From Flammeovirga kamogawensis (GTDB lineage: Bacteria; Bacteroidota; Bacteroidia; Cytophagales; Flammeovirgaceae), in assembly GCF_018736065.1 (NCBI RefSeq), contig NZ_CP076130.1:584633-616632 (forward strand): DNA of 32,000 bases, written 5' to 3'. The notes beneath the pieces are model-generated. The model was not told where the DNA came from, made no database searches, and saw nothing but the letters and a program-made list of their open reading frames with translations. This document shows, piece by piece, positions 4,818-28,757 of the stretch. Every line of letters starts with the position of its first letter. Position 1 is the first letter of the stretch. A program made the position numbers and the translations under genes.

Positions 4818-6686
4818 ATGAAAAGATTATTTACAATACTAATTGTTTATGGTTTACTCCTCCTTTCGGGGTGTGAACCCGAACAACAAACAAACGTTTT
4901 ACTACCTCCTAGCAACCTTTCTTATGTACATGTAATTGGTGCAGCAGAAAGTGGTCAAGGTTTTACTACTCCTCGACCTGCAGTACAAACATCTTCAACT
5001 CCAGCATTCCATTTAGTGAGTGTAAAAGGAGCCAATGGAGGTGAATATATTGATGGTGAAGTGACTTTAGATTCAGTTTCTGGTATAATAAGTTTAGCAA
5101 ATGGCCATCAGTTAATTGATGGAGATTATTATGCTTCGGTTAGCGTGAAAAATAATTATGGAGATACAGATTTTACAGATGTATTTCAATTCACAGTTCT
5201 TCCTTCAATTGTCTCAGGAATTACGTATACTCCAAATGAGTATACCATAATGAGAGGAGAAGAAGAATTGACAACTGAAGCACCAACTATTGAAGGTGGT
5301 TCTTCACCTTATACTTTCAAATCTGTCAATAATTCTTTCTTTGCAATAGATTCGGCAAGTGGTGTTGTTTCTTTACCACAAACGTCAGCATTAGATGCAG
5401 GTGTTTATAATTTATCGGTAACGGTTACCAATGCAACTAACGAAGATGTTGTTGCTTCTAACGCAATAAAGGTAAATTACGAGTCAGCTCCTTACGAAAT
5501 TACATATACAAACCCTACTCCTACTGTTCCGGTTGGACATACATTTATTATTGATGCTCCAGTTACTAAAGGAACAAATAAATTTGGAAATACAATTGCT
5601 TACTCTTTAGTAAACAATTATAATAACTTATTTACAATTAATCCTAGTACAGCTCTTATCACATTTACTGCAGACCCTACGTTGGTTAATTTAAATGATA
5701 CTTTTAAACTAGACGTTAAAGCAGTAAATGCTTACGGTGAGTATGTAAAAGAAAATGCGGTTAATGTTACAATTGTAGAAGCGAAAGATTGGGCTCCATA
5801 TAATTTAATGTATGATCCTAATTATAGTAAAGTTTTCCAAGGTGACAATTTTACTTCTGTAACTCCAATAATTGGTGGGTTAACAGATAACCTTATCTAT
5901 ACATTAGAAAATGATTTCGACATTTTTGCAATTGACGAAAATTCTGGTGTGCTTTCTTACCTTCCTCAAGTAGATCCATCTGCTGTAGAACCGGGTAATT
6001 ATGAGTTAAATATTGAAGCTACAAATCCATATGGTTTAACATTATTCCCAGATGCTTATTCTGTAGAAATTGTATCTTCTGAACCTGAAGTTATTTTTAC
6101 CGATGGATTTGAAGACATCCCTGCCGATGTTCCAGAATATGTAGAAAGTCCTACAGAATGTCGTTTTGGTAAATTCGTATCGTATAGTGTATTAGGTGTT
6201 CCTTCTATTAAAAGTGGCGATCAGTGGTTCCAAGGTTTTGACTACAGATCTTCTACACCAGGTGATAACGCCAATTACCCTTACAGACCGGGTATCTTTA
6301 TTGTTAATGGCAAACAAAAAGGAGAAGATTATCTCGTTTCTGATGAAATTGATTTCACGTATCATAATAATTTGAAATTGACATTAATAGCTGCGTCTAA
6401 GTACGGTACTGAAGCTGCCAATTCTGAAATAGAAATGTATGCTACTACTAATTTTACAGGAGATCCAACCACTACTACTTGGATTCAAATTGATATTCCT
6501 GCAACAAAAAACCTTAGCAATCAGAGTTTTGTTACTAATCCTATCATAGATTTTGATTTAAATCAATTAGCTGGTAAAAAAGTAAGGTTAGCTTTTAAAG
6601 TATATACTATTGGTGATTCTGAATCTAGTATGTCTAGAAACTATTGGATCAATACAATTCAAATTAGTGGCTCTAGATTCCGTTAA
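4818..6686 (+). CDS. Surface lipoprotein (SGBP-like): four cadherin/Ig-like repeats plus a C-terminal choice-of-anchor-J-like beta-sandwich module
   Basis: Lipobox LLLLSGC|EPEQ. There are four ~95-aa repeats with the recurring pattern Y(T/S)(L/F)...F.ID..SG.(V/I)S....(G)(V/N)Y.L.(V/I).(A/V).N. The C-terminal module runs VIFTDGFE...EDYLVSDEIDF...AGKKVRLAFKVYT...NYWINTIQISG. The gene sits directly upstream of susC. Confidence 0.7.
   Translation: MKRLFTILIVYGLLLLSGCEPEQQTNVLLPPSNLSYVHVIGAAESGQGFTTPRPAVQTSSTPAFHLVSVKGANGGEYIDGEVTLDSVSGIISLANGHQLIDGDYYASVSVKNNYGDTDFTDVFQFTVLPSIVSGITYTPNEYTIMRGEEELTTEAPTIEGGSSPYTFKSVNNSFFAIDSASGVVSLPQTSALDAGVYNLSVTVTNATNEDVVASNAIKVNYESAPYEITYTNPTPTVPVGHTFIIDAPVTKGTNKFGNTIAYSLVNNYNNLFTINPSTALITFTADPTLVNLNDTFKLDVKAVNAYGEYVKENAVNVTIVEAKDWAPYNLMYDPNYSKVFQGDNFTSVTPIIGGLTDNLIYTLENDFDIFAIDENSGVLSYLPQVDPSAVEPGNYELNIEATNPYGLTLFPDAYSVEIVSSEPEVIFTDGFEDIPADVPEYVESPTECRFGKFVSYSVLGVPSIKSGDQWFQGFDYRSSTPGDNANYPYRPGIFIVNGKQKGEDYLVSDEIDFTYHNNLKLTLIAASKYGTEAANSEIEMYATTNFTGDPTTTTWIQIDIPATKNLSNQSFVTNPIIDFDLNQLAGKKVRLAFKVYTIGDSESSMSRNYWINTIQISGSRFR
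4905..6074 (+). repeat. Four tandem cadherin/Ig-like protein repeats (aa ~30-127, 128-220, 221-320, 321-419)
   Basis: The repeats are visible by eye at the protein level, for example YTFKSVNNSFFAIDSASGVVSL..AGVYNLSVTVTN against YTLENDFDIFAIDENSGVLSY..PGNYELNIEATN. They are diverged at the DNA level. Confidence 0.65.
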
Positions 6687-12369: not shown

Positions 12370-13818
12370 ATGAAATTCATAAAATATATCATTGGGTTCT
12401 TAGGAGTGGCGTTACTGTTCACTTCATGCGATACTACAAAAGAAGAAAGTGCACCTATCTCTAAAGGAAAAGGGGCTGTTCAACTTTTAGACGCTAAAGT
12501 TTTAGATTTACAATTTGGCAAACTTGTTCCCTCTTTTGATCTTGTAACAGATACCTTTACAGTAGAGTTAAGAACGGAACAACATGCAGAAGGAATTGAC
12601 TTAGGAAAAGTTTTCGAAATCAAAGGAAAGAAAATTGAAGTAGTTCCAGGTAATTATGTTCTTTGTGTTCATTCAAATAATAAATCAGTTGCTGCATTTG
12701 ATATGCCTTATTACGCAGGTTGGTCTTCTTCTTTTGATATTAAAGAAGGTGAATTATTCACAATAGATAATGTGATGACGCAAATTCAAAATATTGCCGT
12801 TACCATTGATTATACTACAGCAACTAAAAATACATTTTCAAACCGTGAGGTAATCATCAATACATTATCTAATCATTCTTTAGTGTACAGTAACCAAACG
12901 GGAACCGATGCTAAAATTGGTTATTTTGATGCTACAGATGTGCCTTTAACTGCAAACGTTCTATTATTAGACCAAGTAACTGGAAAAGAATACACTACAT
13001 CTTTTGCCATAGATGGTGCTAAAATGGAATATACTTACACAATTGATGTAAATACAACGACGCCAGAAGATACACAAGGTGCTGTAAAATTTAATGTTAC
13101 AATTTCTGACGAGATGAAAGAAATACCTTTAACGTGGGTTGTACAAGGAGAAAAAACAGTTATTTGGTCTGATGGTTTTAGTGAAATGGCGGAGGATGAA
13201 AATGTTGTTTTAGCAGATTTAGACTTAGATCAATCTACTGCAGATGGTCCATTTACTGTTGGTGGCTACACTGTGTATTCAGATTTTGGCGATGTAGGTT
13301 ACAATAAAAATACAGGAGATGTAGATACGAATAAATTGTCGGTATGGCTGTTTGGTCAGAATGGTGCTTATTCATCTACAGGTGAAAACGAAACTGTACC
13401 TGGATTCTATTTTAGATCTAACGAAGCTGCAAATAGAGATTGGTTAATCTCTCCAGAAATTGATTTAACCAACTGCTCTCAATTAGAATTTGAATATTAT
13501 GCCGTTACCCTATTTGGTGGCGATGATTCTAATACAAATATTCAGATTTCTCTTATTGATGCTACTGAATACAATGAAAATGACATCCCTAATTTACCTT
13601 GGGTGGAAATAGAAAATAACGAAGAAAAATCAAGCATTAAAACTGCTTTAAGGTTTGAAGGTGACATCCAAGCATTTGAAGGTAAAAAAGTACGCATTGC
13701 TTTTTACTCTCAATCTACTAATAAAGACGGTAGTTTTAATCCAGACTTTTTAGACAAACAATACATGTCAAGAGGTCGTCATCTTACTTCTTTATCTATC
13801 AAAGGCTACAAAAACTAG
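12370..13818 (+). CDS. PUL-associated lipoprotein: N-terminal module shared with 11629..12357 plus a C-terminal choice-of-anchor-J-like module
   Basis: Lipobox ALLFTSC|DTT. The N-terminal module reads KGAVQLLDAKV...FTVELRTEQ...MPYYAGWSSSFDIKEGELFTIDNVMTQIQNIAVTIDYTTA. The C-terminal module (aa 262-482) reads VIWSDGFSE...RDWLISPEIDLTNCSQLEFEYY...GKKVRIAFYSQS...HLTSLSIKG. Confidence 0.65.
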   Translation: MKFIKYIIGFLGVALLFTSCDTTKEESAPISKGKGAVQLLDAKVLDLQFGKLVPSFDLVTDTFTVELRTEQHAEGIDLGKVFEIKGKKIEVVPGNYVLCVHSNNKSVAAFDMPYYAGWSSSFDIKEGELFTIDNVMTQIQNIAVTIDYTTATKNTFSNREVIINTLSNHSLVYSNQTGTDAKIGYFDATDVPLTANVLLLDQVTGKEYTTSFAIDGAKMEYTYTIDVNTTTPEDTQGAVKFNVTISDEMKEIPLTWVVQGEKTVIWSDGFSEMAEDENVVLADLDLDQSTADGPFTVGGYTVYSDFGDVGYNKNTGDVDTNKLSVWLFGQNGAYSSTGENETVPGFYFRSNEAANRDWLISPEIDLTNCSQLEFEYYAVTLFGGDDSNTNIQISLIDATEYNENDIPNLPWVEIENNEEKSSIKTALRFEGDIQAFEGKKVRIAFYSQSTNKDGSFNPDFLDKQYMSRGRHLTSLSIKGYKN

Positions 13819-17065: not shown

Positions 17066-18991
17066 TTACTCTTTAATGAATTTTACTCTTGTTGATTTAT
17101 CGATTTCTAATAGATACATGCCATTTGGTAAGTCACTGATATCAATACATTTGTTGTATACTTTCTTAGTATATGATTCCCCTTGTAGACTAACTATTTT
17201 CACATCATTTAATTGACGAGTTGAATAGATAAATAGCTTACCTTTTGAAGGGTTAGGATAAACATAAATGTCATTATTATTATTTTCTACTGATAATGGC
17301 AATTCAATATCTGCATCAATATTGTTAGGATCTGAACTTTCCTCTTGGTCATTTTGATCAATAATTTCTTCTGTATCACTATCTGATTCTGTAGGAGTTT
17401 CTCCCTCTTCATTTTCCTTAATTGTGTCACTTTCTTCTTCTGGGTCATTGTCTGCACCAGTAGTATCATCCTCTTCCGTTTGTTCCTCTTCCTCCACTTC
17501 TTCCACAGGTTCTTCCATATCTTCTACTTCAAAAGGAAAAATTTGAATTCCACCTATTGCTGATGTACCACCTTCTAATGCTGATAAAGTAAGTGTTACT
17601 TCTTCTTTATTTTTATAAGGACCAAAAATAGCATAAGTTCCTTCAGGGTAATTCTCTAGAGCATCATCAGTAGTTGAAATACTCGAGAGCATATACGGAT
17701 ATTCTTTTGTGTCTTCGCCTCCAAAAACATCAACACCTTTGTAGTACAAGGTGGTATTTCCATCAGAAATACTTGATTTTATATTTTCATCTTTAATTTT
17801 TTCATACATATAAAGGTTCTTACTATCTTTCTTAATACTTCCATTACTTTCATATAAGTATTTATATTCAGGTCTTTCTCCTGTTAGATAAACAATAATT
17901 TTATATCCAGTAGGGAATTGTGTTGCCAAATTTGACAGTGTTATTTGTAATGGTTTTGTACTTTCTTTTGATGTATATACCCCTGCTTGCAATGCACTTC
18001 TATTAGAACCTCCATAGTTAAGAATTCCTTCAGCATTTTTTACAGAATACGTAACAGTACTAGTAGTGTTATTTGACATTTGAAGTGGGGATGATTGTTG
18101 ATAATCTATACTATTATTCCATCCTCCTGTAACTAAGCCCATACGTTCAATACCGAATTTCTCTATAATAGTCGAATAATCACCACTAGCTTCGGTAGCA
18201 AAATTGATATTAATTGAACATAGTGGTGTTACAACTTCCTTTCTAGGGTTGTTAACCAACCAATCTAAATAGCCTTCTTGTTCAAATTCTAATCCCCATA
18301 CATTATGATCTTTTTCTGGAAGAATTTTCAATTTAGCATCAACTCCACCTATCAATAAACCTTTAGCTATAACTCTACTCGTATTGGCATCAACCTTAGG
18401 ATCTTTATCTCCTGTAATTACCCAAGCACTAAAATTATTGTATTTAATAACACTGTCTTTTATAGAAAAATCTTTAGCCATAGCTGCTGCTGTAGAAGCC
18501 ACTGTGGCAAAGGTATTACGCCCAATAGATCGCTCATAAACATACCAGTCCCAAGTTCCTCTTCCACCATAGCTATAACCACTTAAATGTACACGGTCTT
18601 CATCAACTTTATAAGTAGCTTTTATATAATCCCATAGTTTAGAAAGTTGTACATAATTCCATACTCCTTTTGTTCTAGGCCTAATAACCAAATATGGAGA
18701 GTCATCTTTATATAACCTTCCTATCTTTAAAGATACAGTTGTTTTAAATTCTTCTATAGATGATTTCTGTCCATTGTTACCATGTAGGTGAAAATATACA
18801 GGTACTTTATCTACTTCGTTATAGTTTTTGGGAAGTCGGATAGTATAATCAAAAATTACATTGCTGTTTACAGAAGCAGGAGATTCTTGAGATAATTCAA
18901 TACCTAAAGTTGTTTCTTGAGCATTTGTTTCGCTGAAGAAAACTGTCAATAAAGACATTAAGAATACTGAAAATTGTAGTTGTTTTTGCAT
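17066..18991 (-). CDS. T9SS-secreted esterase: alpha/beta-hydrolase domain, unknown beta-rich middle domain, acidic linker and type-A C-terminal sorting domain
   Basis: The likely start is ATG 18991 (MQKQLQFSVFLMSLLTVFFSETNAQ signal peptide); the track extends to 19036. Esterase motifs are PVYFHLHGNNG, HLSGYSYGGRGTW (G-x-S-x-G), GDKDPKV and EKDHNVW. A 73-aa E/D-rich linker precedes the C-terminal YVYPNPSKGKLFIYS...LPNGMYLLEI...VKFIKE, typical of Por_Secre_tail. Confidence 0.8.
   Translation of the reverse strand: MQKQLQFSVFLMSLLTVFFSETNAQETTLGIELSQESPASVNSNVIFDYTIRLPKNYNEVDKVPVYFHLHGNNGQKSSIEEFKTTVSLKIGRLYKDDSPYLVIRPRTKGVWNYVQLSKLWDYIKATYKVDEDRVHLSGYSYGGRGTWDWYVYERSIGRNTFATVASTAAAMAKDFSIKDSVIKYNNFSAWVITGDKDPKVDANTSRVIAKGLLIGGVDAKLKILPEKDHNVWGLEFEQEGYLDWLVNNPRKEVVTPLCSININFATEASGDYSTIIEKFGIERMGLVTGGWNNSIDYQQSSPLQMSNNTTSTVTYSVKNAEGILNYGGSNRSALQAGVYTSKESTKPLQITLSNLATQFPTGYKIIVYLTGERPEYKYLYESNGSIKKDSKNLYMYEKIKDENIKSSISDGNTTLYYKGVDVFGGEDTKEYPYMLSSISTTDDALENYPEGTYAIFGPYKNKEEVTLTLSALEGGTSAIGGIQIFPFEVEDMEEPVEEVEEEEQTEEDDTTGADNDPEEESDTIKENEEGETPTESDSDTEEIIDQNDQEESSDPNNIDADIELPLSVENNNNDIYVYPNPSKGKLFIYSTRQLNDVKIVSLQGESYTKKVYNKCIDISDLPNGMYLLEIDKSTRVKFIKE
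17069..17284 (-). other. T9SS type-A C-terminal sorting domain of the esterase
   Basis: NNNNDIYVYPNPSKGKLFIYSTRQLNDVKIVSLQGESYTKKVYNKCIDISDLPNGMYLLEIDKSTRVKFIKE. Confidence 0.8.
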
Positions 18992-19175
18992 AATTATTAT
19001 CATTTCACTTTTAAAAATGATAATGTATAAGCTCAACTATAGGTTTGATTCCAATAATTATTCAAAACGGTAGAGTGATTAAAAAATGAAACAATTTGGT
19101 CATTTATTAATACTTCGATTAAGGAAAATTGGTGTTCTATTTTAAAAATACAATAAAGTAAAAAGCTATTTTAAT

Positions 19176-19224: not shown

Positions 19225-20469
19225 TTAATCAATAACGAATGCTAACTTGTCGTTTGCTTCATATTCTCGTTTTCGTAATAATGCTTCTAAGTAGTAGTAA
19301 TCTGCATAATTTAGCGGTTTATCAATCTCATTTTTATGAGGAATACTACCTACTGAATGCTTTAATAAAAAGAAGTTGTTATCTCCTACTTGTGCCATAA
19401 ATTCTGGTTCAGATAATGTTGTTACAATTTTATCTGCATTCTCTAAATATCTTTCTGCATCTTCTGTTGGAACATAAGTAGCTAATTCATACAAAGCACT
19501 TGCTGTAACTGCCCCTGCCGATGCATCTCTTGGAGCATTAGGTATTCTTGGATCATTATAATCCCAATAAGGTACCATATCCTTAGGCATCGATTTATTA
19601 GTGAGCATATAGTTTGCAATTTTCTGTGCAAAATCTAGGTATTTTTGGTCTTTTGTAAAACGGTAACACGTTAAGTAACCATATAATCCCCATGCTTGTC
19701 CACGTGCCCAAGATGAATTATCTGCATAACCTTGTGCAGTTTGTCTATGCCTAACTTCACCATTTGTGCTATCATAATCAACCACATGGTAGCTGCTAAA
19801 ATCTGGTCTATAATGGTGCTGCATTGTTTTATCTGCATGCTTAATTGCAATATCTCTATACGTATTGTCTCCAGATAAATCAGATGCTTTAAACAGTAAT
19901 TCTAGATTCATCATATTGTCTATAATTACCGGGTACTCCCATCCTCTTTCACTTTGCCAGCCCTTATCAACATCCCAAGAAAGAATAACCCCAACTTCTG
20001 GATGGAATCTACTTGAAAGTGATTTAGCTGAATTAATTAGCACCTCTTTGTACTCTTCTGTATGGTCTAGTCTTAATCCGTTCCCAAAAGAACAGTTGAT
20101 GATAAAACCAACGTCATGGTTACCTTTATGAAACTGGTTATGAGCAACTTTTTTAGAATACTCTTTTGCTAGTTCTTCCCATTTAGGATCTTTTGTATAT
20201 TCATATAAGTACCATAAAGAACCAGGAAAAAAGCCTTGTGTCCAGTCATATTCACCCACCAAATATTTAGTAGTCACACCATCATTTAAAATACTTCTTG
20301 GTATCTGATCATGGTTATCTGCTTCTTCTTCTAAAAGAGTATATTGTTGTTCTGCTCTATCAAATACTCTATCTACAACTTTAGTTTGTTCTTCTGTTTT
20401 AGTCTCGCAAGAAGTGACAGATACAAATAATGCTATAGTAGTCGCTATTTTTAAAAATCTATTGTTCAT
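19225..20469 (-). CDS. Glycoside hydrolase family 88, unsaturated glucuronyl hydrolase (lipoprotein)
   Basis: GH88 hallmarks are DWTQGFFPGSLWYLYEYT, GNHDVGFIINCSFGNG and WARGQAWGLYGY. The likely start is ATG 20469 (MNNRFLKIATTIALFVSVTSC|ETK lipobox). The tracked start at 20535 adds 22 aa with no signal character. Confidence 0.88.
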   Translation of the reverse strand: MNNRFLKIATTIALFVSVTSCETKTEEQTKVVDRVFDRAEQQYTLLEEEADNHDQIPRSILNDGVTTKYLVGEYDWTQGFFPGSLWYLYEYTKDPKWEELAKEYSKKVAHNQFHKGNHDVGFIINCSFGNGLRLDHTEEYKEVLINSAKSLSSRFHPEVGVILSWDVDKGWQSERGWEYPVIIDNMMNLELLFKASDLSGDNTYRDIAIKHADKTMQHHYRPDFSSYHVVDYDSTNGEVRHRQTAQGYADNSSWARGQAWGLYGYLTCYRFTKDQKYLDFAQKIANYMLTNKSMPKDMVPYWDYNDPRIPNAPRDASAGAVTASALYELATYVPTEDAERYLENADKIVTTLSEPEFMAQVGDNNFFLLKHSVGSIPHKNEIDKPLNYADYYYLEALLRKREYEANDKLAFVID

Positions 20470-20650
20470 TATATTGATATTTTCAAATGTGAAGTAATCA
20501 CTGTTCAATTTTAGTTTGCATGTCTCGTAATACAAAAATGGTCGTTAAGACATTATTAAAGGGTTTGAATTATTCAATAAGTAGGACTTATCATCCATTA
20601 TATAAGTAAATTGGCTGTTTTGAACCGTTATATACATTCATTGAATTTAT

Positions 20651-20692
20651 AGTGAACAGCAGTTATTTATCAAAAAACAACTGCTGTCCACT
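20651..20692 (-). terminator. Hairpin immediately after the giant gene stop (probable terminator)
   Basis: AGTGAACAGCAGTT (20651..20664) pairs with AACTGCTGTCCACT (20679..20692), a 14-bp stem with one mismatch and a 14-nt loop. The downstream sequence is A/T-rich but has no clean U-tract. Confidence 0.5.
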
Positions 20693-20696
20693 TCTT

Positions 20697-23600
20697 TTAT
20701 TGCTTTATAAACTTCTTTAAGATTATCTCTCCATCAGAAATTATATTTACGTAATACATTCCAGATGATAGGGTATCTAATCTAATTACCGTTTCTTGTG
20801 CTTTAATATCTCTACTCATTACTTGTTGCCCCATTCCGTTAAAAAATACTGCTTTTGTTCCTTCTTTAACAGTGGTCATTTTTAATGTAAGTTGAGTAGT
20901 TGCAGGAACTGGGTAAAGTACTACATCAGCGTTCCAAACATCTCCGATAGAAGTAGGTCCATTTTCTCTATATATCCCTTCAAATATTAATTCAGGAACT
21001 TGCTCATCAACTGAATAAGAAGATGAAAATCTCACCCAATTAGAGCCCGTCACTTTAAAAGTCACCTCCTTCGAACCTTGTTCTAACGCCGCTTTTACGT
21101 AATCAGACACATCGAAATAGTAGTCTATTTGGTTTCCATTATGTTCCATACTCGGAATTGTATTTTCGGCAAGTATTGCAGCGTCATCTGCCACTAAATC
21201 ACTGCCAGACGTACCTAAAGTAGTACTGTAAGATACTTCATTAGCAAACCAAGATGTTGCTGTAGAACCAAAAACATTTATATCAGAATCTTCCGACATG
21301 TTTGTCTTATCTGCATATAATTTCAACATTACTTTATCTACACTTTCCATAACAGAAAGATCAAATTTTAAGTAAGTAGCCTTATCGTTACTACCAATTT
21401 CTAAGTAATTACTTGTTGCAAAATTTTCTGTTGGATATTGTGATGTCACATACGTATCATCTATAATATCTGCAGCAAAATTCTCTTTTGCAATTACTTT
21501 ATACTGATACACAAGGTTTCCATCCTGAGATATACTTTCTACAATACAGCCTGCGTATACATCTGCAACAATTTGGTGCGTAGATGGGGCAATTACTGTG
21601 ATAGATCCTCCTTCTGGAGCAATAACGTCTTCTAAAAATTGTGCTTTGCTTTGTGCAATATCAATACCTTCAATTTCTCCCATTTCTGTTGCCTCTGTTG
21701 GGTGAATGATTGAATAAGTAGCCGAACTTATTTCTGCAGAAGTAATTAACTCTACTTGTTTTGGTTTAAACTGAAAAGCTGAAATATAAGGTGCATTTGC
21801 AACAACAGAAGATCTATATATTGACGTGAAAATTGCTTTTCCATCAGTATCTAAAATGTTCGTAATTTCTCTAATAATAAAGGTCTGCACAGAATCTGCT
21901 TCGCTAATTTCTCCTAAGTTTAAAGGAATCGAAATTAGTTGATCTTCGTCTGATTGATATAACTCAATAAAGCCTACTCTTTTAAATAGTCCTTCTGGTT
22001 TAGCATCAAATGTTACGGTAGTCTCATCAAAATCAACTGCTGCAGCAACTACTTCGTAACTTACAGATGTTCCTTTGTAGGCTCTTCCTGTAATATTTAG
22101 ATTTACTTCTGTAAGTGTATCTAAATTCATTAATGAACTCACATTAAAAGACAATAAGGCTTCTCTTAAATAGGTGCTATTTGTGGCTGCTACAATTTCT
22201 ATCTTAGAATTATCAAAATAATTTTTAGACGAGTTACTTCCTCCTCTTACCATTACGTCTTTTCTAGATGCATACGTTTTGTTTTCTGTATTAGAGAAAC
22301 CATAATGAATTGTATACACTTTAGAAATACCATCTGCAGAAGATACTTCTATTTGATGTGTACTTCCATTTACTGAATGTTTAGGCGTAATTGTTACCGT
22401 ATTACTTGCATCTGTATCTACAATAAGCGTTGGCATTACTGCTTCTGTAGATGTGTGTGCTACAAAGTAATTTTCCGTTTCTGGAGAAAATTCTTCTATT
22501 TGTTTTCCATCAATAGAAATACCAAAAACTAGTGTACCTTTTGCTAAACGGTCTGTCAATTGCTGTTGGAACACAGAGGCTGGATACACTCCTTTTTTAT
22601 TTAAGCCTTCAACATAAATTCCTGATGTAGCTCTATCTGCTCTAGAACCTGCAATTTGTACATTAGAAGCTTCAGGATTATAAACACCAATTACTTTACT
22701 CTGAGGGTACATTAAGTAACTTTGCTCTTCCTGTCCAAGAAGTGCCATCCACCAAGCATAGAAAAATTCATTTTCAATTGCACTAATTTCGTTAGGTACT
22801 TCTAAGTTCCAGAATACATTAGCAATTCCACTATTTGGCATATTTTCCATTGCTCCAGATCCTTCACATCTAATATTATTTACATTTTCAATTAGGTTAG
22901 CCGCTGGAAAACCTCCTCCATGAAAATCGACTGTACCGTCATAATCACCTAATTCTATATTTGTAAATACATTACCAACCATTATACCCGTACCCCCAAT
23001 TGGGTGCGTTCTAAATGCTGATATTTTAGCATCTTTTAAAACATTTCCATAACCGTTAACTTTAATACCATGATGCCCATCTTTACCAATAACATTTATA
23101 CCTTGAAGGGTAAGTCCTTTTGATAAACTGGTGTTTAAATCCCATGTAAAGTTTTCAAAAGTAACATCTTTCACCCAAGAGTTTGATAACTTACTCAATT
23201 GAAGTGCACACCATCCGTAATCCATTTCATAGACTGTCTTTTCATCTTCTTGAGAGCCGTCTTCGTTCTTACCATGGTGCTTGTATTCTCCAGACCAAGC
23301 CGAAGAAAAACGTAGGTTTTCAATACCTGTTTCTGTAGTATAATTTGTTGTTGAGATCACCGTTTCATATCTCGTTTCTAAATCAATCGGTAATGGCTCT
23401 TTTATAGAAATGTGTTTTCCATTTACGTTAATTACCTCTACAGACCACTGAAATGCTGTTGATCTATTAAAGCTTGACCATCTATCATCTTTTGCTAATG
23501 GGAAGACCATTTTTCTAGAAGCCATATCATCACCTTCTGCATTTTTTACTGTGATTAAAATAAAATCACCAGCTTTTAATGCTGTTTCCGTATCTACAAT

Positions 23601-26204
23601 AAGGTGTCTATCACCTTGTATTGCGGTCTTTTCTAGTTTAGCAACCTCTGTTCCCGATCTACCCCAAATACGCATTCCAAATGTTCCAAACTCAGTACCT
23701 TTTCGTGGTATTTGATTATGGAAATACAATACAGTTCCATCTTCTCCTTGGCCTTCACCTCTTAAAACAATATTACTTTTACTGAAGTTAATGGTTACTA
23801 GATCTTCAGGATTTGTTAGAAAATCATATTGCCCTTTAGGAAGAAGTAGTACTCCACCTCCCGCTTTTCCCATTTCTTCAAATGCTGTATTTAACGCTAC
23901 TGCATCATCTTTATTATCATTTGGAAGTATACCAAAATCAACTGCATTATGCGTAACCGAAAGTGTTGGAATTTCAATTTCACTGTTATGATAACCAGCA
24001 TAGGAGAAGTTAGGTAAAATCGACTTATCTCCTTTCTCTTGAAAGTCTTTCCAAATTTCAGGAATCCATTCTGTCGCTACTGGTGGGGCAATACTTTCGG
24101 TAATAGTTACTGTGTATGGAAAGACGATTTCAGACTGGTCTACTGTATTTGTAACAACAATATTGAAAGTATATGTTCCAACAGATGGCTTCTCATTAAA
24201 TACAATTTCGTTACTTTCATTTATCGAAACTACTGCTGCGTCTTCTCCAGAAATAGAGTAGGTATATGTAGCATTTTCAGCTCCTCCTTCTGTAGTAAGT
24301 TCGCCTATTAAAAATGATTCTGTTATATCATCTTCATTAATTTCTTGCTGATCAGATGTATTTCCTCCAACTACTAAACTAATTGTTGAATTAATACGAA
24401 CCTGAACCTCTAAAGTAGTTATTTGTCCGTTATCTGCAGTTCCTTTTATTATTAATGATGCTGTAGGTTGCGTTGCCGCTTCTAGAGCTTCTGCTGTAGT
24501 TATTGTTCCTTCAGTAAGCGTAAACAAATTAGCATCATCACCTTCTAAAGTATACGTTACAGCTAAACCTTTGTCTTCTTCTACAATTGTGGCCACCTCA
24601 ATTCCTGCATCTCCTTCAGTAATTTCAGGGCTTTCTGGAGTTGTTGCAAATGCTGGCACAGGAATTACATCTACATTAAAAGAAGAAGCTGTTGCCCCGC
24701 CTGCGTTAGCTGCTGTAATTGTAAAACCAGATGGTCTTGTAAAATAATCAAGTGATTTATTTAAGATGACATCATTTCCACTTAATCGATAAGTTGGATT
24801 TGATGTGGTCGTTACATTACAAATTGGAAGGATCGTATTTTTGATATTTGTATCAGAATATGTTGCTCTAAATGCAACCCATAATTTTGTATTCCCTAAA
24901 ATATAAGCCGACAGGTCTAAATTTGTTACATTGATTCCTGATAAATCATCTAAATTAAAATTATCTAATTTCAAGAAGTCTGCAGAAACATTTTCTTTAA
25001 CAACTTGCCAACCTGAATGTGTTAATGGGTTTACAGGAGCTGTAGTACTCACTACAATTTCTAAAGAATTGTCTGACAAAGTTCCGTAGCGAGATGCTCC
25101 ACCATATTCTAAAACTAAGTTCGATATATCAGATACATCAATTGCTCTATCTAATAACAAATAAGATGTAAAAGCTTCTTTTGTCGCATCGGTACCATTT
25201 CCATTTTTTATTAATGGATAGTATACTTCTTCACCGTTCAATGTTATTTTTTGGGTACTCCAAATCTTAGTATATGATGCACCTTGGTATTCTGGAGTAA
25301 TAGACGAAGCATTTGTAAAACCATTTAAACCATCTGACGAAGGATTGGTTACATACGCTTTTTTATGAACTCCTGGAGTAAACTTATTTTCTACTAACGA
25401 TACTATTGTATTCGTTCCTGTATAAGATACTGTCCCTACAGTTGAAGTAGGGACAGTATTTTCTATTATTTCTGTTGCTGTGAATGCTAGATCTGTTGGT
25501 GCAGCTTCTGTCTCCTCATTCTCTACAGTTATTTTTACAGATGCAAGGTAAATTTGTCTTGATGTAAGTTCATTAAAAGATTCATATTTAAATGCAATCC
25601 ATATTTTCTCTTTACCTACTCCATAATCCGAGATACTCACCTCACCTTGGGTTAAACTTTCAAGGTCTAGAACATCATACCCTCCTGATGCATTTTTAAC
25701 TTGATTAAAAAAGATATCATCCACTTGAGTAGAGAGTACTTGCCAATTAGTATGGCCAGATAAATCAGACGTTGGGTCTGTATCTGTTACTAAAATTGAT
25801 ACATCTTGATGTGCATTTGACCCGAACCTATACAACCCGCTATAATTTAGCAGTATATCTTTTGCTTGGTCTACATTAATACCTTCAGTACATAAATAAG
25901 AAGTAAATGCTTTTTTCTGAGGTTTCACCGAAGGGAAATAGGTAAACTTAGATGCACCACTTTCACTTAAAATATTAATTCCAGAAACAGACCATGTTTG
26001 TAACCACATACTACCAGAATAGGTAGATGTTAAATAATTTGTTGATGAAGTGTAGCCATTTAATCCAGAAGAGATTTCTTCGTCTGCTTGTGGTTTCGAT
26101 TGTGTTCCTTGCTCAAAAGCAATTTCTGTTTGTGCAAAGCTTTCAAAGCATAAAGTTGTAAGGAAACTTAAAGCAAAAAAGCTAAATAGTAATTTCTTTT
26201 TCAT
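20697..26204 (-). CDS. Giant (1835 aa) mosaic T9SS cargo protein with a pectate-lyase-fold beta-helix core, a candidate extracellular polysaccharide lyase or hydrolase
   Basis: Signal peptide aa 1-25. Two choice-of-anchor-J-like modules (aa ~44-228 and ~285-466) are followed by cadherin/Ig-like repeats (aa ~470-703). The beta-helix core (aa ~711-1222) is paralogous to ORF 27180..28757. After it come a cadherin-like beta-sandwich (aa ~1223-1302), two DNRLRE-like modules (aa ~1309-1480 and ~1576-1745) and a T9SS CTD (aa ~1758-1835: VVLYPVPATTQLTL...SSGMYYVNIISDGEIILKKFIKQ). Confidence 0.8.
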   Translation of the reverse strand: MKKKLLFSFFALSFLTTLCFESFAQTEIAFEQGTQSKPQADEEISSGLNGYTSSTNYLTSTYSGSMWLQTWSVSGINILSESGASKFTYFPSVKPQKKAFTSYLCTEGINVDQAKDILLNYSGLYRFGSNAHQDVSILVTDTDPTSDLSGHTNWQVLSTQVDDIFFNQVKNASGGYDVLDLESLTQGEVSISDYGVGKEKIWIAFKYESFNELTSRQIYLASVKITVENEETEAAPTDLAFTATEIIENTVPTSTVGTVSYTGTNTIVSLVENKFTPGVHKKAYVTNPSSDGLNGFTNASSITPEYQGASYTKIWSTQKITLNGEEVYYPLIKNGNGTDATKEAFTSYLLLDRAIDVSDISNLVLEYGGASRYGTLSDNSLEIVVSTTAPVNPLTHSGWQVVKENVSADFLKLDNFNLDDLSGINVTNLDLSAYILGNTKLWVAFRATYSDTNIKNTILPICNVTTTSNPTYRLSGNDVILNKSLDYFTRPSGFTITAANAGGATASSFNVDVIPVPAFATTPESPEITEGDAGIEVATIVEEDKGLAVTYTLEGDDANLFTLTEGTITTAEALEAATQPTASLIIKGTADNGQITTLEVQVRINSTISLVVGGNTSDQQEINEDDITESFLIGELTTEGGAENATYTYSISGEDAAVVSINESNEIVFNEKPSVGTYTFNIVVTNTVDQSEIVFPYTVTITESIAPPVATEWIPEIWKDFQEKGDKSILPNFSYAGYHNSEIEIPTLSVTHNAVDFGILPNDNKDDAVALNTAFEEMGKAGGGVLLLPKGQYDFLTNPEDLVTINFSKSNIVLRGEGQGEDGTVLYFHNQIPRKGTEFGTFGMRIWGRSGTEVAKLEKTAIQGDRHLIVDTETALKAGDFILITVKNAEGDDMASRKMVFPLAKDDRWSSFNRSTAFQWSVEVINVNGKHISIKEPLPIDLETRYETVISTTNYTTETGIENLRFSSAWSGEYKHHGKNEDGSQEDEKTVYEMDYGWCALQLSKLSNSWVKDVTFENFTWDLNTSLSKGLTLQGINVIGKDGHHGIKVNGYGNVLKDAKISAFRTHPIGGTGIMVGNVFTNIELGDYDGTVDFHGGGFPAANLIENVNNIRCEGSGAMENMPNSGIANVFWNLEVPNEISAIENEFFYAWWMALLGQEEQSYLMYPQSKVIGVYNPEASNVQIAGSRADRATSGIYVEGLNKKGVYPASVFQQQLTDRLAKGTLVFGISIDGKQIEEFSPETENYFVAHTSTEAVMPTLIVDTDASNTVTITPKHSVNGSTHQIEVSSADGISKVYTIHYGFSNTENKTYASRKDVMVRGGSNSSKNYFDNSKIEIVAATNSTYLREALLSFNVSSLMNLDTLTEVNLNITGRAYKGTSVSYEVVAAAVDFDETTVTFDAKPEGLFKRVGFIELYQSDEDQLISIPLNLGEISEADSVQTFIIREITNILDTDGKAIFTSIYRSSVVANAPYISAFQFKPKQVELITSAEISSATYSIIHPTEATEMGEIEGIDIAQSKAQFLEDVIAPEGGSITVIAPSTHQIVADVYAGCIVESISQDGNLVYQYKVIAKENFAADIIDDTYVTSQYPTENFATSNYLEIGSNDKATYLKFDLSVMESVDKVMLKLYADKTNMSEDSDINVFGSTATSWFANEVSYSTTLGTSGSDLVADDAAILAENTIPSMEHNGNQIDYYFDVSDYVKAALEQGSKEVTFKVTGSNWVRFSSSYSVDEQVPELIFEGIYRENGPTSIGDVWNADVVLYPVPATTQLTLKMTTVKEGTKAVFFNGMGQQVMSRDIKAQETVIRLDTLSSGMYYVNIISDGEIILKKFIKQ
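20700..20933 (-). other. T9SS type-A C-terminal sorting domain of the giant protein
   Basis: NADVVLYPVPATTQLTLKMTTVKEGTKAVFFNGMGQQVMSRDIKAQETVIRLDTLSSGMYYVNIISDGEIILKKFIKQ. Confidence 0.8.
22539..24074 (-). other. Beta-helix (Pectate_lyase_3-like) catalytic-core region of the giant protein
   Basis: LPNFSYAGYHNSEIEIP, AVDFGILPNDNKDDAVALNTAF, GGVLLLPKGQYDF, NIVLRGEGQGEDGTVLYF, YKHHG, YGWCALQLSKLSNSWVKDVTFENF and GHHGIKV all align motif-by-motif with ORF 27180..28757. Confidence 0.7.
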
Positions 26205-26285: not shown

Positions 26286-26921
26286 TTATTTAAGCGTAAT
26301 GTACGCTCCATTTTTTGTTATATTCCCGTTTTTAGAAGTTCTCTCTTTAGAGTAAAACTCCGAAGTAACGGGTCTGTCAGCCACACTTTGTAATGCTATA
26401 GAAAACTCTTGTTTCTTACCAGAGTCTATAATCAATTCTTTTATTTCAATTGCTGGAATACTTACTGTATACCAAGCCCAACCACCTTGTTCTCCTTTCT
26501 GAGTAACTTCAAAAGTTCCTATTTTACCACCTACTTGTGGGGCTTTTTTCCAAGTAATACTCTCTTCATTCCACTTATTAGATAATACGGTATGAACATC
26601 AATAATTGCATTTTTATCTGTTTGTTTACTAAATGCTTTTCCATACACATGTAAAACAATAAAATTTGCATTATCTAGTCCATCAATATTTTTCATGCTA
26701 AACTTCAAATAAGTTCTTCTACTGTACTTATTTTCTTTTTTCACATTACCTACTCTTAGCTTATTGCTTTGTGTGCTACCCATTGTTTTCACACTAGACT
26801 CACCACACTCTACATAAGCATCTTGCTTTACTTTTATTTTACCACCGTTCTTTGGTTCACCTGCTTGTACTAAAGAAACCATTCCTAAAGAAAAAAGTAG
26901 TATAAAAATTCTTGTTTTCAT
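26286..26921 (-). CDS. Secreted stand-alone DNRLRE-like (carbohydrate-binding-type) module protein, 211 aa
   Basis: Signal peptide MKTRIFILLFSLGMVSLVQA. DAYVECGESS...RRTYLKFSMKNIDGLDNANFIVLHVYGKA...IDVHTVLSNKWNEESITWKKAP fits the DNRLRE pattern (D.yv...YLkFdl...A.L.ly...v..v...W.E..iTW..aP) and the two modules in the adjacent giant protein. Confidence 0.6.
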   Translation of the reverse strand: MKTRIFILLFSLGMVSLVQAGEPKNGGKIKVKQDAYVECGESSVKTMGSTQSNKLRVGNVKKENKYSRRTYLKFSMKNIDGLDNANFIVLHVYGKAFSKQTDKNAIIDVHTVLSNKWNEESITWKKAPQVGGKIGTFEVTQKGEQGGWAWYTVSIPAIEIKELIIDSGKKQEFSIALQSVADRPVTSEFYSKERTSKNGNITKNGAYITLK

Positions 26922-27179: not shown

Positions 27180-28757
27180 TTAAAAAAACAAACCTTCTTT
27201 TTTCAAATCTTTGATCCAATCAGGTAACTCACCTAATCTTAATTCTAACTGTGCCTCAAATAAAGATGTTGTTTTAACGGGTGTACCTACAGATTCTAAT
27301 ACATCAATTGTAGAAGCATCAAATGATGCACCTTCCTGTCCATGGAATCCAACTACAATAGGAGGAATAACTTTCCAAAACCAAGTATCTTTTGCCCAAA
27401 AAGTAAAATTCTGCTCTGCCGCATCTGTCTCCTTAAAGTTCCAAATTACTAAGTTTCTTAAATGGTTTGGAAGGTTTTGTCTAGCTCCACCACCTCTGCC
27501 TGCAAAGAATCCACCTTCGACACAATCAAAAAGTGTGTTTCTTGGTTGTGAGGCATGAGATTCAAAAGATGTATTCGGTGTCCATCGTGTTCTCCAAATA
27601 ACATTATTAGATGATGATCCGCCAGATACTCCATAAGAATGCCATACACCTGCCTGGTCATCACAATTTGCAATTAAAACACCCATAGATGCCGTCATAG
27701 AAATTGCATTATGCCCTGGGTTACCTTCGATAACACAATTTAATGCCGTAACTGCCGCAGATTTAGTTATGTGTACAGATCTACTAACATCTTTAAATCT
27801 ACAATCTTGAACCCAAGAATCTGTTACACCATTTAGATTTAATATACTCCAACCTCCATCATGTACAGCATCTTTATGATGCTTAAATTCATCTTTCCAA
27901 TTTCCTTCAAACGCTAAATGTTCAAAACCAATATGCTCTAAATGTGCATAAGATTTTAACGTCCACTCGTGTTTTGATTGTACATCATAATGAATTGGTT
28001 CTTCAAAAATTACATTCTTTCCTTCTATTGCCTTAACAATGTGTTTTTCGTTTACAATCACACCTTTGTTTAGAATGGTTTTCCAAGAAGGATCGCACTT
28101 AGCAGGGGCTAATTCATAATTTACTAAATCTGGAGCATTGTTTTTAACAGACAATAGAACCCAATCTCCTACTTTTATCTTATTAGTATTATCTACTTCA
28201 ACAGAAAAAGTTTCTCTCTTTGCATTTCTGCTAACGTTAGCAAGAAACTTATCAGCTCCTTTAGGTACTGTTTTAATTGCAAAAGGTGCTGTCCATAATT
28301 TTGAAGGATCTGCAGCCTTTAAATCTAAATCAAAAAATAAAATAGATCCATCCGTTCCTTTTCCTTCTCCTCTAAATACAATATTAGAAGATCTTACAGT
28401 GATAAGGTCTGTCTTGTCTTTCTTAGTATTGATGTAATACTTTCCTTTAGGGAAAAAGATAATCCCTTCTCCATTTTGTTCTGCTGCTGCAATTGCTTTT
28501 TGAATCGCTTTTTTATCTGATTTTTTATCATTTGGTTTTGCTCCAAAATCTGTAACATCAAATATTTTGTAGTCAGCTACAGGTATACCCACTTCGCTAT
28601 ATTCATATCCTACAAAAGAAAAGTTGGGTAACTTTGGTGTTTCTCCTGTCTCTTGGCATGCTTTGTACTCTTTCCAAACTTCACTTTCTTGTGCAAAAAC
28701 TGAAGATATAGAAACACTCAAAGTTGCTAGTAATGCTATAAGTAATTTCTTGTTCAT
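27180..28757 (-). CDS. Secreted right-handed beta-helix enzyme (Pectate_lyase_3-like N-terminus; DUF4955/PL29-like by memory), candidate polysaccharide lyase
   Basis: The likely start is ATG 28757 (MNKKLLIALLATLSVSISSVFAQ signal peptide). VTDFGAKPNDKKSDKKAIQKAIAAAEQNGEGIIFFPKGKYYI is the classic start of pectate-lyase-superfamily beta-helices. The rest is paralogous to aa ~711-1222 of the giant protein. Confidence 0.7.
   Translation of the reverse strand: MNKKLLIALLATLSVSISSVFAQESEVWKEYKACQETGETPKLPNFSFVGYEYSEVGIPVADYKIFDVTDFGAKPNDKKSDKKAIQKAIAAAEQNGEGIIFFPKGKYYINTKKDKTDLITVRSSNIVFRGEGKGTDGSILFFDLDLKAADPSKLWTAPFAIKTVPKGADKFLANVSRNAKRETFSVEVDNTNKIKVGDWVLLSVKNNAPDLVNYELAPAKCDPSWKTILNKGVIVNEKHIVKAIEGKNVIFEEPIHYDVQSKHEWTLKSYAHLEHIGFEHLAFEGNWKDEFKHHKDAVHDGGWSILNLNGVTDSWVQDCRFKDVSRSVHITKSAAVTALNCVIEGNPGHNAISMTASMGVLIANCDDQAGVWHSYGVSGGSSSNNVIWRTRWTPNTSFESHASQPRNTLFDCVEGGFFAGRGGGARQNLPNHLRNLVIWNFKETDAAEQNFTFWAKDTWFWKVIPPIVVGFHGQEGASFDASTIDVLESVGTPVKTTSLFEAQLELRLGELPDWIKDLKKEGLFF

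Follow-up and report, generated by a model that had tools for sequence, protein, structure and literature searches.

The SusC/D locus of Flammeovirga kamogawensis (Bacteroidota, Cytophagales) raises the question of what a single protein of 1835 amino acids contributes to a catabolic gene cluster that also encodes sulfatases, esterases and a shorter enzyme related to the central part of that protein. This question was addressed in a stretch of 32,000 nucleotides (contig NZ_CP076130.1 of assembly GCF_018736065.1, positions 584,633 to 616,632), referred to below as the window, where an uninterrupted open reading frame occupies positions 20697..26204 of the minus strand. The original prediction of one 1835-aa ORF at this place is confirmed by an NCBI protein of F. 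kamogawensis, "DNRLRE domain-containing protein", which is 100% identical to the ORF product. We consider it reasonably likely that this product is a multi-module polysaccharide-degrading enzyme exported by the type IX secretion system (T9SS), with a core that is most probably a lyase. The protein is unusually large and otherwise essentially ordinary. A word-indexed homologue search with the full 1835-aa query returned only the protein itself, and a search of the literature on F. kamogawensis found nothing specific to it.

The first half of the protein comprises a signal peptide, a module termed N1, a cadherin-like domain apparently split by a second module (N2), and two Ig-like repeats; the second half comprises a right-handed beta-helix core, a linker, a CBM96 module, another linker, another CBM96 module, and a type-A T9SS sorting domain. 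The corresponding positions in the window are as follows.

26133..26204, minus strand: signal peptide, aa 1-24, MKKKLLFSFFALSFLTTLCFESFA with Q as the next residue; hydrophobic N-terminus with an A-x-A-like site at its end, as read from the translation
25503..26132, minus strand: N1, aa 25-234, candidate MAM-like or choice-of-anchor-J-like jelly roll, copy 1, duplicate of N2
25407..25502, minus strand: left half of the cadherin-like repeat, aa 235-266
24807..25406, minus strand: N2, aa ~267-466, copy 2 of the same candidate jelly roll, duplicate of N1, apparently within the cadherin-like repeat
24651..24806, minus strand: right half of the cadherin-like repeat, aa 467-518
24090..24650, minus strand: two Ig-like/cadherin-like repeats, aa 519-612 and 613-705 (sub-cutoff Pfam Cadherin, Y_Y_Y, AF2)
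22533..24089, minus strand: predicted catalytic core, aa 706-1224, a PL29-related right-handed beta-helix with DUF4955 at its C-terminal end (NCBIfam, PF16315, AF2, Foldseek)
22290..22532, minus strand: strand-rich linker module X1, aa 1225-1305 (low-confidence AF2 model)
21771..22289, minus strand: CBM96/DNRLRE module a, aa 1306-1478 (PF24517, NF033679)
21471..21770, minus strand: linker module X2, aa 1479-1578
20970..21470, minus strand: CBM96/DNRLRE module b, aa 1579-1745 (PF24517, NF033679, PDB 7vbo)
20700..20918, minus strand: type-A T9SS C-terminal sorting domain, aa 1763-1835 (TIGR04183, PF18962)
20651..20692, minus strand: terminator-like 18-bp hairpin, 5 nt past the stop codon of the ORF, identified by folding energy

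Curated models are passed or clearly matched by the core, both CBM96/DNRLRE modules and the sorting domain, and Pfam and NCBIfam scans gave zero family matches for the linkers X1 and X2. In total, about two-thirds of the protein is non-catalytic, consisting of the MAM-like, Ig-like and CBM96 modules and the linkers. The idea that all types of accessory modules of the locus are combined in this one protein went too far, given that the DUF4493, DUF4861 and DUF6250 domains of the locus are absent from it. The hairpin has a folding energy of -26.5 kcal/mol (z = -8.7), and none of 200 shuffled sequences folded equally well.

The sorting domain lies at the extreme C-terminus and scores above the cutoffs of both relevant models, TIGR04183 (37.6 bits vs 23) and PF18962 (38.1 bits vs 27), as expected for the type-A domain originally predicted. 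Its counterpart in the neighbouring protein encoded at 17066..19036 is similar to it (z = 6.0), and nearby genes encode two sorting-domain proteins besides the 1835-aa one. Combined with the Sec signal seen in the translation and with the Bacteroidota host, this domain marks the protein as a predicted T9SS cargo.

The core is, by sequence comparison, homologous to the lyase family PL29, the founding member of which is BT3328, and it belongs to a distant clade homologous to this family, because it scores only 126 bits (full protein) to 132.6 bits (core alone; E 1e-36 to 1e-38) with the BT3328 family model NF058554, the equivalog cutoff of which is 1100 bits. Being about one-eighth of that cutoff, the score means that the core is no equivalog of the characterized enzyme, and its activity may therefore differ. 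The match nevertheless extends over ~520 residues (model positions 309-830), and the C-terminal part of the core (aa 1067-1222) passes the DUF4955 model PF16315 with 28.5 bits in the full protein and 30.8 bits in the core alone, compared to the cutoff of 25. A literature search for DUF4955 found no papers. The right-handed parallel beta-helix expected of PL29 was found in the AF2 model of aa 709-1224 (pLDDT >90), for which Foldseek retrieved beta-helix lyases, epimerases and hydrolases with E-values down to 1e-11 and with lyases as the top matches. Among solved structures, the closest in fold are tailspike and capsule lyases, AlgE epimerases, GH110 and GH28 hydrolases, the RbmB lyase and chondroitinase B; no solved structure of PL29 was found in the PDB searched.

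Of 42 positions with a conservation of 80% or more among 53 relatives, 39 are identical in the core, these positions reflecting family conservation rather than named catalytic sites of BT3328. The conserved His, Glu, Asp, Arg and Tyr residues are all kept, and the three differences are conservative; the kept positions include Y738, D767, E962, H976, H1044, H1067, H1095, N1133, E1199, Q1215 and R1219.

The gene context of the core was considered both in the window and at the loci of its closest relatives. The window contains a SusC/D pair, two sulfatases, esterases, a BT4661-like SGBP and a PL29-like paralogue, with a GH88-like gene (19225..20535) located directly downstream of the 1835-aa ORF. 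Two of the neighbours upstream of the ORF are related to its modules.

26286..26921, minus strand: secreted free-standing CBM96/DNRLRE protein of 211 aa, directly upstream (PF24517 67.4 bits, NF033679 59.5 bits)
27180..28757, minus strand: free PL29-like beta-helix paralogue, 525 aa in the NCBI call (BT3328 family 424 bits, PF16315 174.6 bits)

Among the loci of the closest relatives (n=6), a SusC/D pair or a SusD-like gene was found in four. Sulfatases are present in four loci, the window being included in this count, and GH88 is encoded at three of the six relatives' loci, which are independent of one another, as well as in the window; it is missing within 10 kb at two of the closest relatives' loci. 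The recurrence of SusC/D, sulfatases, esterases and GH88 at the related loci favours a secreted endo-lyase that would open a sulfated, uronic-acid-containing polymer. NCBIfam scans of the sulfatases and esterases of the window yielded no substrate-level assignment. One of the relatives' loci encodes a chondroitinase-ABC-type PL8, a fucosidase, GH88 and DUF6250, a combination that hints at a marine glycosaminoglycan-like polymer, fucosylated or carrying other decorations, as one candidate substrate should the core clade have a specificity of its own.

Both DNRLRE-like modules foreseen in the C-terminal half, and their likeness to the free protein encoded at 26286..26921, hold up, as all three sequences pass PF24517 and NF033679 (cutoffs of 26 and 34 bits, respectively). 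Module a scores 45.7 bits with PF24517 and 43.3 bits with NF033679, with the HMM match covering aa ~1309-1415 and only the first ~100 of the 164 model positions, whereas module b (match at aa 1581-1740) scores 60.5 and 66.5 bits and is also similar to PDB 7vbo, the solved structure of an alginate-lyase CBM96 (E 6.7e-6). For X1, CBM96a, X2 and most of CBM96b, AF2 modelling of the C-terminal half yielded nothing usable. Module a is related to the free CBM96 protein (z = 8.6); the latter, however, is much closer to foreign enzymes than to either CBM96 module of the large protein, being 32-34% identical (E 1e-12 to 1e-25) to the N-terminal CBM96 modules of the relatives P0003, P0004 and P0006.

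These observations allow the proposed lyase activity to be weighed against other functions. It is unlikely, in our assessment, that the core is a glycoside hydrolase comparable to GH28, GH110 or iota-carrageenase enzymes, in which case the protein would still be a secreted depolymerase and the GH88-like neighbour would serve the products of the other PL29-like enzyme. This reading could draw on the score far under the PL29 equivalog cutoff, on the presence of GH110, GH28 and GH91 among the significant Foldseek folds, and on weak matches to rhamnogalacturonidases, a galacturonidase, an alpha-1,3-galactosidase and iota-carrageenase; however, the latter are limited to the first 50-110 residues, which form a shared N-terminal cap, whereas the only family matched over the full length of the core is a lyase family, lyases head the Foldseek list, and GH88 accompanies the members of the clade at independent loci. 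The same cap, over ~70 residues, also confines the best PDB sequence matches of the core, the A-modules of AlgE6 and AlgE4 (E 1.6e-4 and 2.3e-3), which appear on the Foldseek list together with the alginate epimerase/lyase 8jaz. They might suggest, along with the alginate bound by the founding CBM96, that the core modifies its polymer as a uronate C5-epimerase in the way of the AlgE A-modules, possibly with a side lyase activity. Such an enzyme would have no obvious use in a SusC/D locus that is catabolic and encodes sulfatases and GH88, and in view of the full-length match to a lyase family we regard this function as extremely improbable.

The large non-catalytic share of the protein and the existence of beta-helix adhesins, one of which (PfbA) is on the Foldseek list, would be compatible with a protein that serves mainly as a surface adhesin or glycan-capture protein, has lost beta-helix catalysis, and tethers cells to polysaccharide particles via its four binding modules. 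The retention of nearly all family-conserved positions in the core, with every conserved polar or charged residue among them, and the nature of the relatives that have the same core, which are ordinary enzymes of 500-950 aa at catabolic loci, make this highly unlikely. We therefore retain the secreted polysaccharide-degrading enzyme with a probable lyase core as the preferred reading. Points that count against this reading include the low or medium confidence of the accessory-module models and the presence of hydrolases and epimerases among the nearest folds of the core.

The N-terminal modules N1 and N2 (aa 25-234 vs ~267-466) align with a Smith-Waterman score of 220 (z = 30) and, on this comparison, are genuine duplicates. 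They are otherwise isolated in sequence space: no Pfam or NCBIfam model matched either module even at E<=10, a search of 1.84 billion representative proteins gave neither module a strong homologue (for N1, none at E<=1e-3), a word-indexed search with aa 25-480 returned nothing, and an exhaustive phmmer search with the same region retrieved, apart from the protein itself, a single cadherin-repeat protein, which matches the linker. A scan of the genome with the N region revealed no relative, and a profile of the N modules had zero matches over 82 related loci. The relatives that could be detected are the C-terminal modules of two lipoproteins of the same window.

6135..6683, plus strand: C-terminal module of o4818, an SGBP-like lipoprotein; closest relative detected for N2
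13237..13815, plus strand: C-terminal module of the DUF4493 lipoprotein o12370, with a choice-of-anchor-J match just under the cutoff

The o4818 module is similar to N2 (z = 7.2; HMM E 5e-5 in a 20-protein set) and to the o12370 module (z = 14.5), which in turn is matched by the choice-of-anchor J model NF038128 with 24.5 bits (E 2.6e-5), under the cutoff of 30 bits. The four modules have 10 invariant columns in common. The original prediction of two choice-of-anchor-J-like modules, as in the Sus-operon lipoproteins, is thus borne out with respect to the duplication and to an indirect chain from o12370 via o4818 to N2. N1 and N2 themselves had no match to NF038128 at E<=10, and their proposed similarity to the Sus-operon lipoproteins encoded at 11629 and 13825 is not supported (z < 3). 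A comparison of the N-type modules with choice-of-anchor J by hhalign gave E 1.1e-3 with a probability of only 20%, and the top PDB match of the four-sequence profile, residues 461-563 of the InhA metalloprotease, is not significant (E 0.15). The AF2 model of N2 (aa 314-469) is of medium confidence (pLDDT 63-90); Foldseek matched it to MAM domains (8a28, 2c9a, 8ziy; MAM E 8.6e-4), an Eph ligand-binding domain, CBM30 and CBM4.

From the sequence alone, N2 appears to be inserted inside a cadherin-like repeat. The segment preceding it, aa 235-266, matches each of the 12 cadherin-like repeats of the protein P0077 (E 1.4e-17 database-wide) and corresponds to positions 1-32 of a custom repeat profile, while the segment following it, aa 467-518, corresponds to profile positions 47-91 (E 3.4e-4, small set). 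When the two halves are joined, they give one colinear match to positions 1-90 with 28.8 bits. The spliced repeat had no Pfam match, and the AF2 model of aa 225-720 is poor outside N2 and the last repeat. For the two Ig-like repeats that follow, Pfam Cadherin (PF00028) gives 18.3 and 15.4 bits, under its cutoff of 28.8, whereas the second repeat (aa 613-705) passes Y_Y_Y when scanned alone (28.1 bits vs 26.6), and its AF2 model (aa 624-704, pLDDT ~80) is matched by Foldseek to cadherin EC1 domains with TM 0.56-0.66. The cadherin-like character first proposed for these repeats is borne out in part, by the resemblance in fold of the second repeat, and a specific kinship with the repeats of the lipoprotein encoded at 4818..6686 finds no support (z <= 2.3).

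Are the modules of the large protein products of domain shuffling within the locus, as was first suggested? The modules are real, and for the N module the closest detectable relative is indeed local (the o4818 C-terminus); it is the only module of which this is true. The core and the free beta-helix gene at 27180..28757, initially described as its duplicate, are homologous (BLASTP E 2e-40) with 28.5% identity, compared to 38-39% between the core and its best relatives outside the genome (Mariniphaga, Labilibacter). A recent local duplication is ruled out by these values, and the core is thus an old paralogue of the free gene. Because the core and the free CBM96 protein are closer to foreign enzymes and the Ig-like repeats have no specific kinship with o4818, the modules are best described as shared families that are old and diverged, with no recent exchange, and the case for shuffling had been overstated.

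Based on these data, the following pathway is proposed. The Sec signal would bring the protein to the periplasm, and the type-A C-terminal domain would then direct it to the T9SS for release or for tethering at the cell surface. Outside the cell, the beta-helix core would most likely cleave a sulfated, probably acetylated, uronic-acid-containing polymer by beta-elimination, a glycosaminoglycan-like substrate being the leading guess. Binding by the pair of CBM96 modules and by the MAM-like pair near the N-terminus may keep the enzyme on its substrate, with the Ig-like repeats as spacers. The oligosaccharides produced would be caught by the surface lipoproteins with related MAM-like modules and imported by the adjacent SusC/D pair, and their degradation could be completed by the sulfatases and esterases together with the GH88-like unsaturated uronyl hydrolase and the other PL29-like enzyme. 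It counts against this proposal that the founding CBM96 binds alginate rather than glycosaminoglycans and that the sulfatase families gave no clue to the substrate. The all-in-one extracellular or cell-surface depolymerase of the original prediction is supported by the Sec and T9SS signals, the beta-helix core with its conserved positions, the two CBM96 modules and the SusC/D locus.

If this reconstruction is correct, the 1835-aa protein would be the outward-facing first cutter of a marine sulfated-polysaccharide pathway and would stand for a so far uncharacterized branch of PL29-related enzymes. N1 and N2 would be sequence orphans otherwise seen only in the surface lipoproteins of the same locus, and the four putative binding modules might find use as probes for a marine glycan and help to define the substrate of the locus. 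A further proposal, which is possible although rather doubtful, is that N1, N2 and the C-terminal modules of o4818 and o12370 constitute an undescribed, highly diverged CBM family of the MAM/choice-of-anchor-J type for the glycan of the locus, and that at the same time the core clade (P0002-P0013) is a distinct lyase subfamily or a new family beyond the PL29 specificity. Such a CBM family would be common to the secreted enzyme and the surface capture proteins. The understanding of such systems is left unchanged by the protein, which adds a member and candidate modules to a well-known design.

Among the known systems, BT3328 (BtCDH) of Bacteroides thetaiotaomicron, the founder of PL29, is a surface endo-lyase active on hyaluronan, chondroitin sulfate and dermatan sulfate (PMC9067506, PMC7793863). 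It resembles the F. kamogawensis protein in its catalytic region, homologous over ~520 residues and including the DUF4955 part at the C-terminus, in the predicted location at or beyond the outer membrane in a member of the Bacteroidota, and in the SusC/D locus with sulfatases and GH88. In contrast, BT3328 is a surface protein of ~840 aa, whereas the F. kamogawensis protein has 1835 aa and carries a T9SS sorting domain, two MAM-like modules, Ig-like repeats and two CBM96 modules; furthermore, the closer PL29 relative in the window is the neighbouring free gene (424 bits) rather than the core of the large protein. The founding CBM96 belongs to the alginate lyase Dp0100 (PDB 7vbo), is alginate-specific and is attached to a PL39 lyase (PMC9971899). 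Both C-terminal modules of the F. kamogawensis protein pass the models of this family, but they are joined to a PL29-like core whose locus encodes sulfatases and GH88, and their ligand is therefore probably not that of the Dp0100 module.

The nearest relatives of the core are found in enzymes of Mariniphaga anaerophila, Labilibacter sediminis and metagenomes (P0002-P0013 and P0019; 31-39% identity, E 1e-60 to 1e-104), which are encoded at the same type of locus. The combination of the core with CBM96, with or without the sorting domain, recurs in P0003-P0006 and P0019, and in P0019 the core, DNRLRE and the type-A sorting domain follow in identical order. These proteins differ from the 1835-aa protein in their length of 545-954 aa and in having no N1/N2 modules; in P0003, P0004 and P0006, the CBM96 modules are N-terminal to the core, and the first of them is far nearer to the free protein encoded at 26286..26921 than to either CBM96 module of the 1835-aa protein. 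With the choice-of-anchor J/MAM jelly roll, the likeness consists of the NF038128 match of the o12370 C-terminus and the pairwise chain from it via o4818 to N2 and N1, and the difference consists of the apparent nesting of N2 within a cadherin-like repeat. In multimodular T9SS-dependent CAZymes of marine Bacteroidota, a catalytic module with several CBMs and Ig-like spacers stands between a signal peptide and a C-terminal sorting domain; multimodular flavobacterial enzymes are reportedly the subject of one published title. The 1835-aa protein follows the same general design, and it differs from these enzymes in joining a PL29-like core to a pair of CBM96 modules and a pair of orphan MAM-like modules, an arrangement that no retrieved relative shares.

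The window is a polysaccharide utilization locus encoding SusC/D, a BT4661-like SGBP, two DUF4493 lipoproteins, two sulfatases, a DUF6250 protein, a DUF4861 protein, three esterase-like proteins (one with a T9SS domain) and, directly downstream of the large gene, a GH88-like hydrolase. The large gene lies beside two genes to which its parts were compared:

20697..26204, minus strand: large gene, a single ORF of 1835 aa without interruption
26286..26921, minus strand: free secreted CBM96 protein (211 aa, own signal peptide)
27180..28757, minus strand: PL29-like beta-helix paralogue, the free neighbour (the NCBI gene call agrees with the coordinates of the original prediction)

At 100% identity, the large protein matches a Flammeovirga kamogawensis (Cytophagales, Bacteroidota) entry at NCBI that is named only "DNRLRE domain-containing protein", and the locus lies on contig JACHGS010000009.1 of assembly GCA_014207545.1. 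The following domain map combines the internal duplication of the protein with Pfam and NCBIfam scans of its entire sequence and of eight overlapping segments:

aa 25-234 and ~267-466: modules N1 and N2, clear duplicates (Smith-Waterman 220, z = 30)
aa ~706-1224: beta-helix core, matching NCBIfam "BT3328 family hyaluronic acid endo-lyase" (model positions 309-830, E 1e-36 to 1e-38)
aa ~1309-1415 and 1581-1740 (matched residues): two CBM96/DNRLRE modules, each above the cutoff in separate scans
aa 1763-1835: type-A T9SS sorting domain (TIGR04183, 37.6 bits vs 23; PF18962, 38.1 vs 27)

The second CBM96 module also matches the solved alginate-lyase CBM96 7vbo (E 6.7e-6). In the same scans, aa 1225-1305 and 1479-1578 had no family match. 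The mosaic described in the original prediction is thus largely real with respect to the sorting domain, the two CBM96 modules, the core and the N1/N2 duplicates, but the core is no recent copy of the free neighbour, with which it shares 28.5% identity (E 2e-40).

The core scores only 126-133 bits against the BT3328 family model, for which the equivalog cutoff is 1100, and exceeds the cutoff for Pfam DUF4955 (28.5-30.8 bits vs 25). The free neighbour is a far closer PL29 relative (424 bits on the BT3328 family model). The nearest relatives of the core lie outside the locus, in Mariniphaga anaerophila, Labilibacter sediminis and metagenomes, and are 31-39% identical to it, and a scan of one genome per species (185,579 species) gave a best identity of no more than 38%. 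Given the low mutual identity and the closer relatives elsewhere, the two beta-helix genes are old paralogues belonging to different clades. The AF2 model of the core (55-sequence alignment) is a right-handed beta-helix with pLDDT > 90 across aa 709-1224; its best solved neighbours are phage tailspike/capsule lyases, AlgE epimerases, GH110/GH28 hydrolases, the RbmB lyase and chondroitinase B, and a sequence search of the PDB copy turned up no PL29 structure. An alignment of 53 relatives has 42 columns with conservation of 80% or more, and the large protein is identical at 39 of these. No conserved His, Glu, Asp, Arg, Asn or Tyr is lost, and the other three columns carry conservative changes; the core therefore looks catalytically competent.

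The six closest-relative loci examined repeat this pattern, with SusC/D, paralogous beta-helix genes in tandem, sulfatases and esterases; three of them also encode GH88, a family whose members act on the unsaturated ends that lyases generate. BT3328 is a surface endo-lyase with hyaluronan, chondroitin sulfate and dermatan sulfate as substrates (PMC9067506, PMC7793863). Taken together, the locus pattern, the role of GH88 and the activity of BT3328 make lyase action on a sulfated, glycosaminoglycan-like polymer containing uronic acids the favoured reading. As an inference, the proposal that the protein is a secreted all-in-one depolymerase has good support.

Several further features of these loci were observed. 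In one of the six, the metagenomic locus L084 (contig ERZ27248176:k141_33793), the core relative P0006 lies beside an alpha-L-fucosidase, a DUF6250 protein, a chondroitinase-ABC-type PL8, a T9SS protein and GH88, a gene set that would fit a fucosylated chondroitin-sulfate-like substrate. The DUF6250 protein, found in the window (2541-3344) and in L084 (5931-6635, adjoining a distant core relative), could represent a conserved, uncharacterised part of such loci. Two further T9SS-sorted proteins with esterase-like domains are encoded near the large gene (window 17066-19036, minus strand, and L001 1807-2910); one has weak PHB-depolymerase/esterase family matches and the other matches Abhydrolase_2, which suggests secreted deacetylation of the same substrate. 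An 18-bp hairpin (20651-20692, minus strand; -26.5 kcal/mol, z = -8.7, with 0 of 200 shuffles folding equally well) begins 5 nt 3' of the large-gene stop codon. It looks like a terminator or RNA-stabilising stem, so the downstream GH88-like gene may use its own promoter.

The N1 and N2 modules were described as choice-of-anchor-J-like. Neither matched any Pfam or NCBIfam model even at E<=10, and when the N region was searched exhaustively with phmmer against 1.84 billion representative proteins, no homologue appeared at E<=1e-3 except itself, the other match being a cadherin-repeat protein aligned only to the short N1-N2 connecting stretch. The word-indexed search and genome scan returned nothing for this region, and a four-sequence N-module profile had no match in 82 loci coding for related cores. 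Fragment queries also missed the source protein and genome, although the full-length query recovered the protein, so the missing self-match carries no biological meaning. Within the window, N2 and the C-terminal module of lipoprotein o4818 (SGBP-like) are significantly similar (z = 7.2). The o4818 module is in turn clearly similar (z = 14.5) to that of the second DUF4493 lipoprotein, o12370; the latter matches the choice-of-anchor J model slightly below the cutoff (E 2.6e-5, 24.5 bits vs 30). All four modules align with 10 invariant columns (hhalign E 1.1e-3, probability just 20%). The AF2 model of N2, from a shallow alignment (pLDDT 63-90 for aa 314-469), matches MAM domains, the Eph ligand-binding domain, CBM30 and CBM4; the top PDB sequence match of the N-module profile, InhA metalloprotease residues 461-563, is not significant (E 0.15). 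By this transitive chain and medium-quality model, the choice-of-anchor-J-like assignment is plausible, with kin in o4818 and o12370 only; it does not extend to lipoproteins 11629 and 13825. Since the two lipoprotein modules are homologous, the Sus operon codes for two surface proteins sharing one putative binding module. In both modules (6135-6683 and 13237-13815, plus strand) there is a region with the motif D-[WY]-L-[IV]-S, typical of choice-of-anchor J.

The residues flanking N2 match a single repeat profile. Residues 235-266 match the initial third of the cadherin-like repeat, ~99 residues long, in the cadherin-repeat protein P0077 (12 repeats; database-wide E 1.4e-17), and aa 467-518, directly after N2, match the remainder. 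When spliced, the halves give one colinear match (profile positions 1-90, 28.8 bits); the spliced repeat is not recognised by Pfam, and its second-best PDB match, a weak one that crosses the splice junction, is a protocadherin. Because the two flanks correspond, in order, to the opening and closing portions of one profile, N2 (24807-25406) likely interrupts a loop of a cadherin-like domain (flanks 25407-25502 and 24651-24806); the structure model is poor around these flanks. Within the coding sequence, a hairpin with a perfect 13-bp stem and a 7-nt loop (25427-25459, minus strand; -21.9 kcal/mol, z = -5.5) encodes NTVPTSTVGTVS, the left half of the split repeat directly before N2, and a stem of this length would not be expected by chance in 5.5 kb. 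The two repeats that follow are Ig-like, with sub-threshold Pfam Cadherin matches; the second, scanned alone, exceeds the Y_Y_Y cutoff and its model resembles cadherin EC1. These repeats had been likened to those of o4818, with which they share no significant sequence similarity.

The original prediction also read the locus as a clear case of internal domain shuffling, which is only weakly supported: no within-locus module similarity exceeds about 30% identity, and the closest relatives of both the core and the free CBM96 protein lie outside the genome. A core joined to CBM96, in some cases with a sorting domain, is also seen in the core relatives P0003-P0006 and P0019. BLAST detected no similarity between the free CBM96 protein and the large protein's own CBM96 modules. 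Its similarity is to the N-terminal CBM96 of P0003, P0004 and P0006 (32-34% identity, E 1e-12 to 1e-25), the Mariniphaga, Labilibacter and metagenomic enzymes bearing the cores nearest to that of the large protein. This connects the free protein to this enzyme type by a fusion/fission link, which is not evidence for within-locus exchange.

Worth following up are the orphan MAM-like modules common to the large protein and the locus's own lipoproteins, the probable nesting of N2 in a cadherin-like repeat and the uncharacterised core clade. As predicted from its domains, the large protein is an unusually large multimodular T9SS-secreted CAZyme with a PL29-related core, and such CAZymes are already known.
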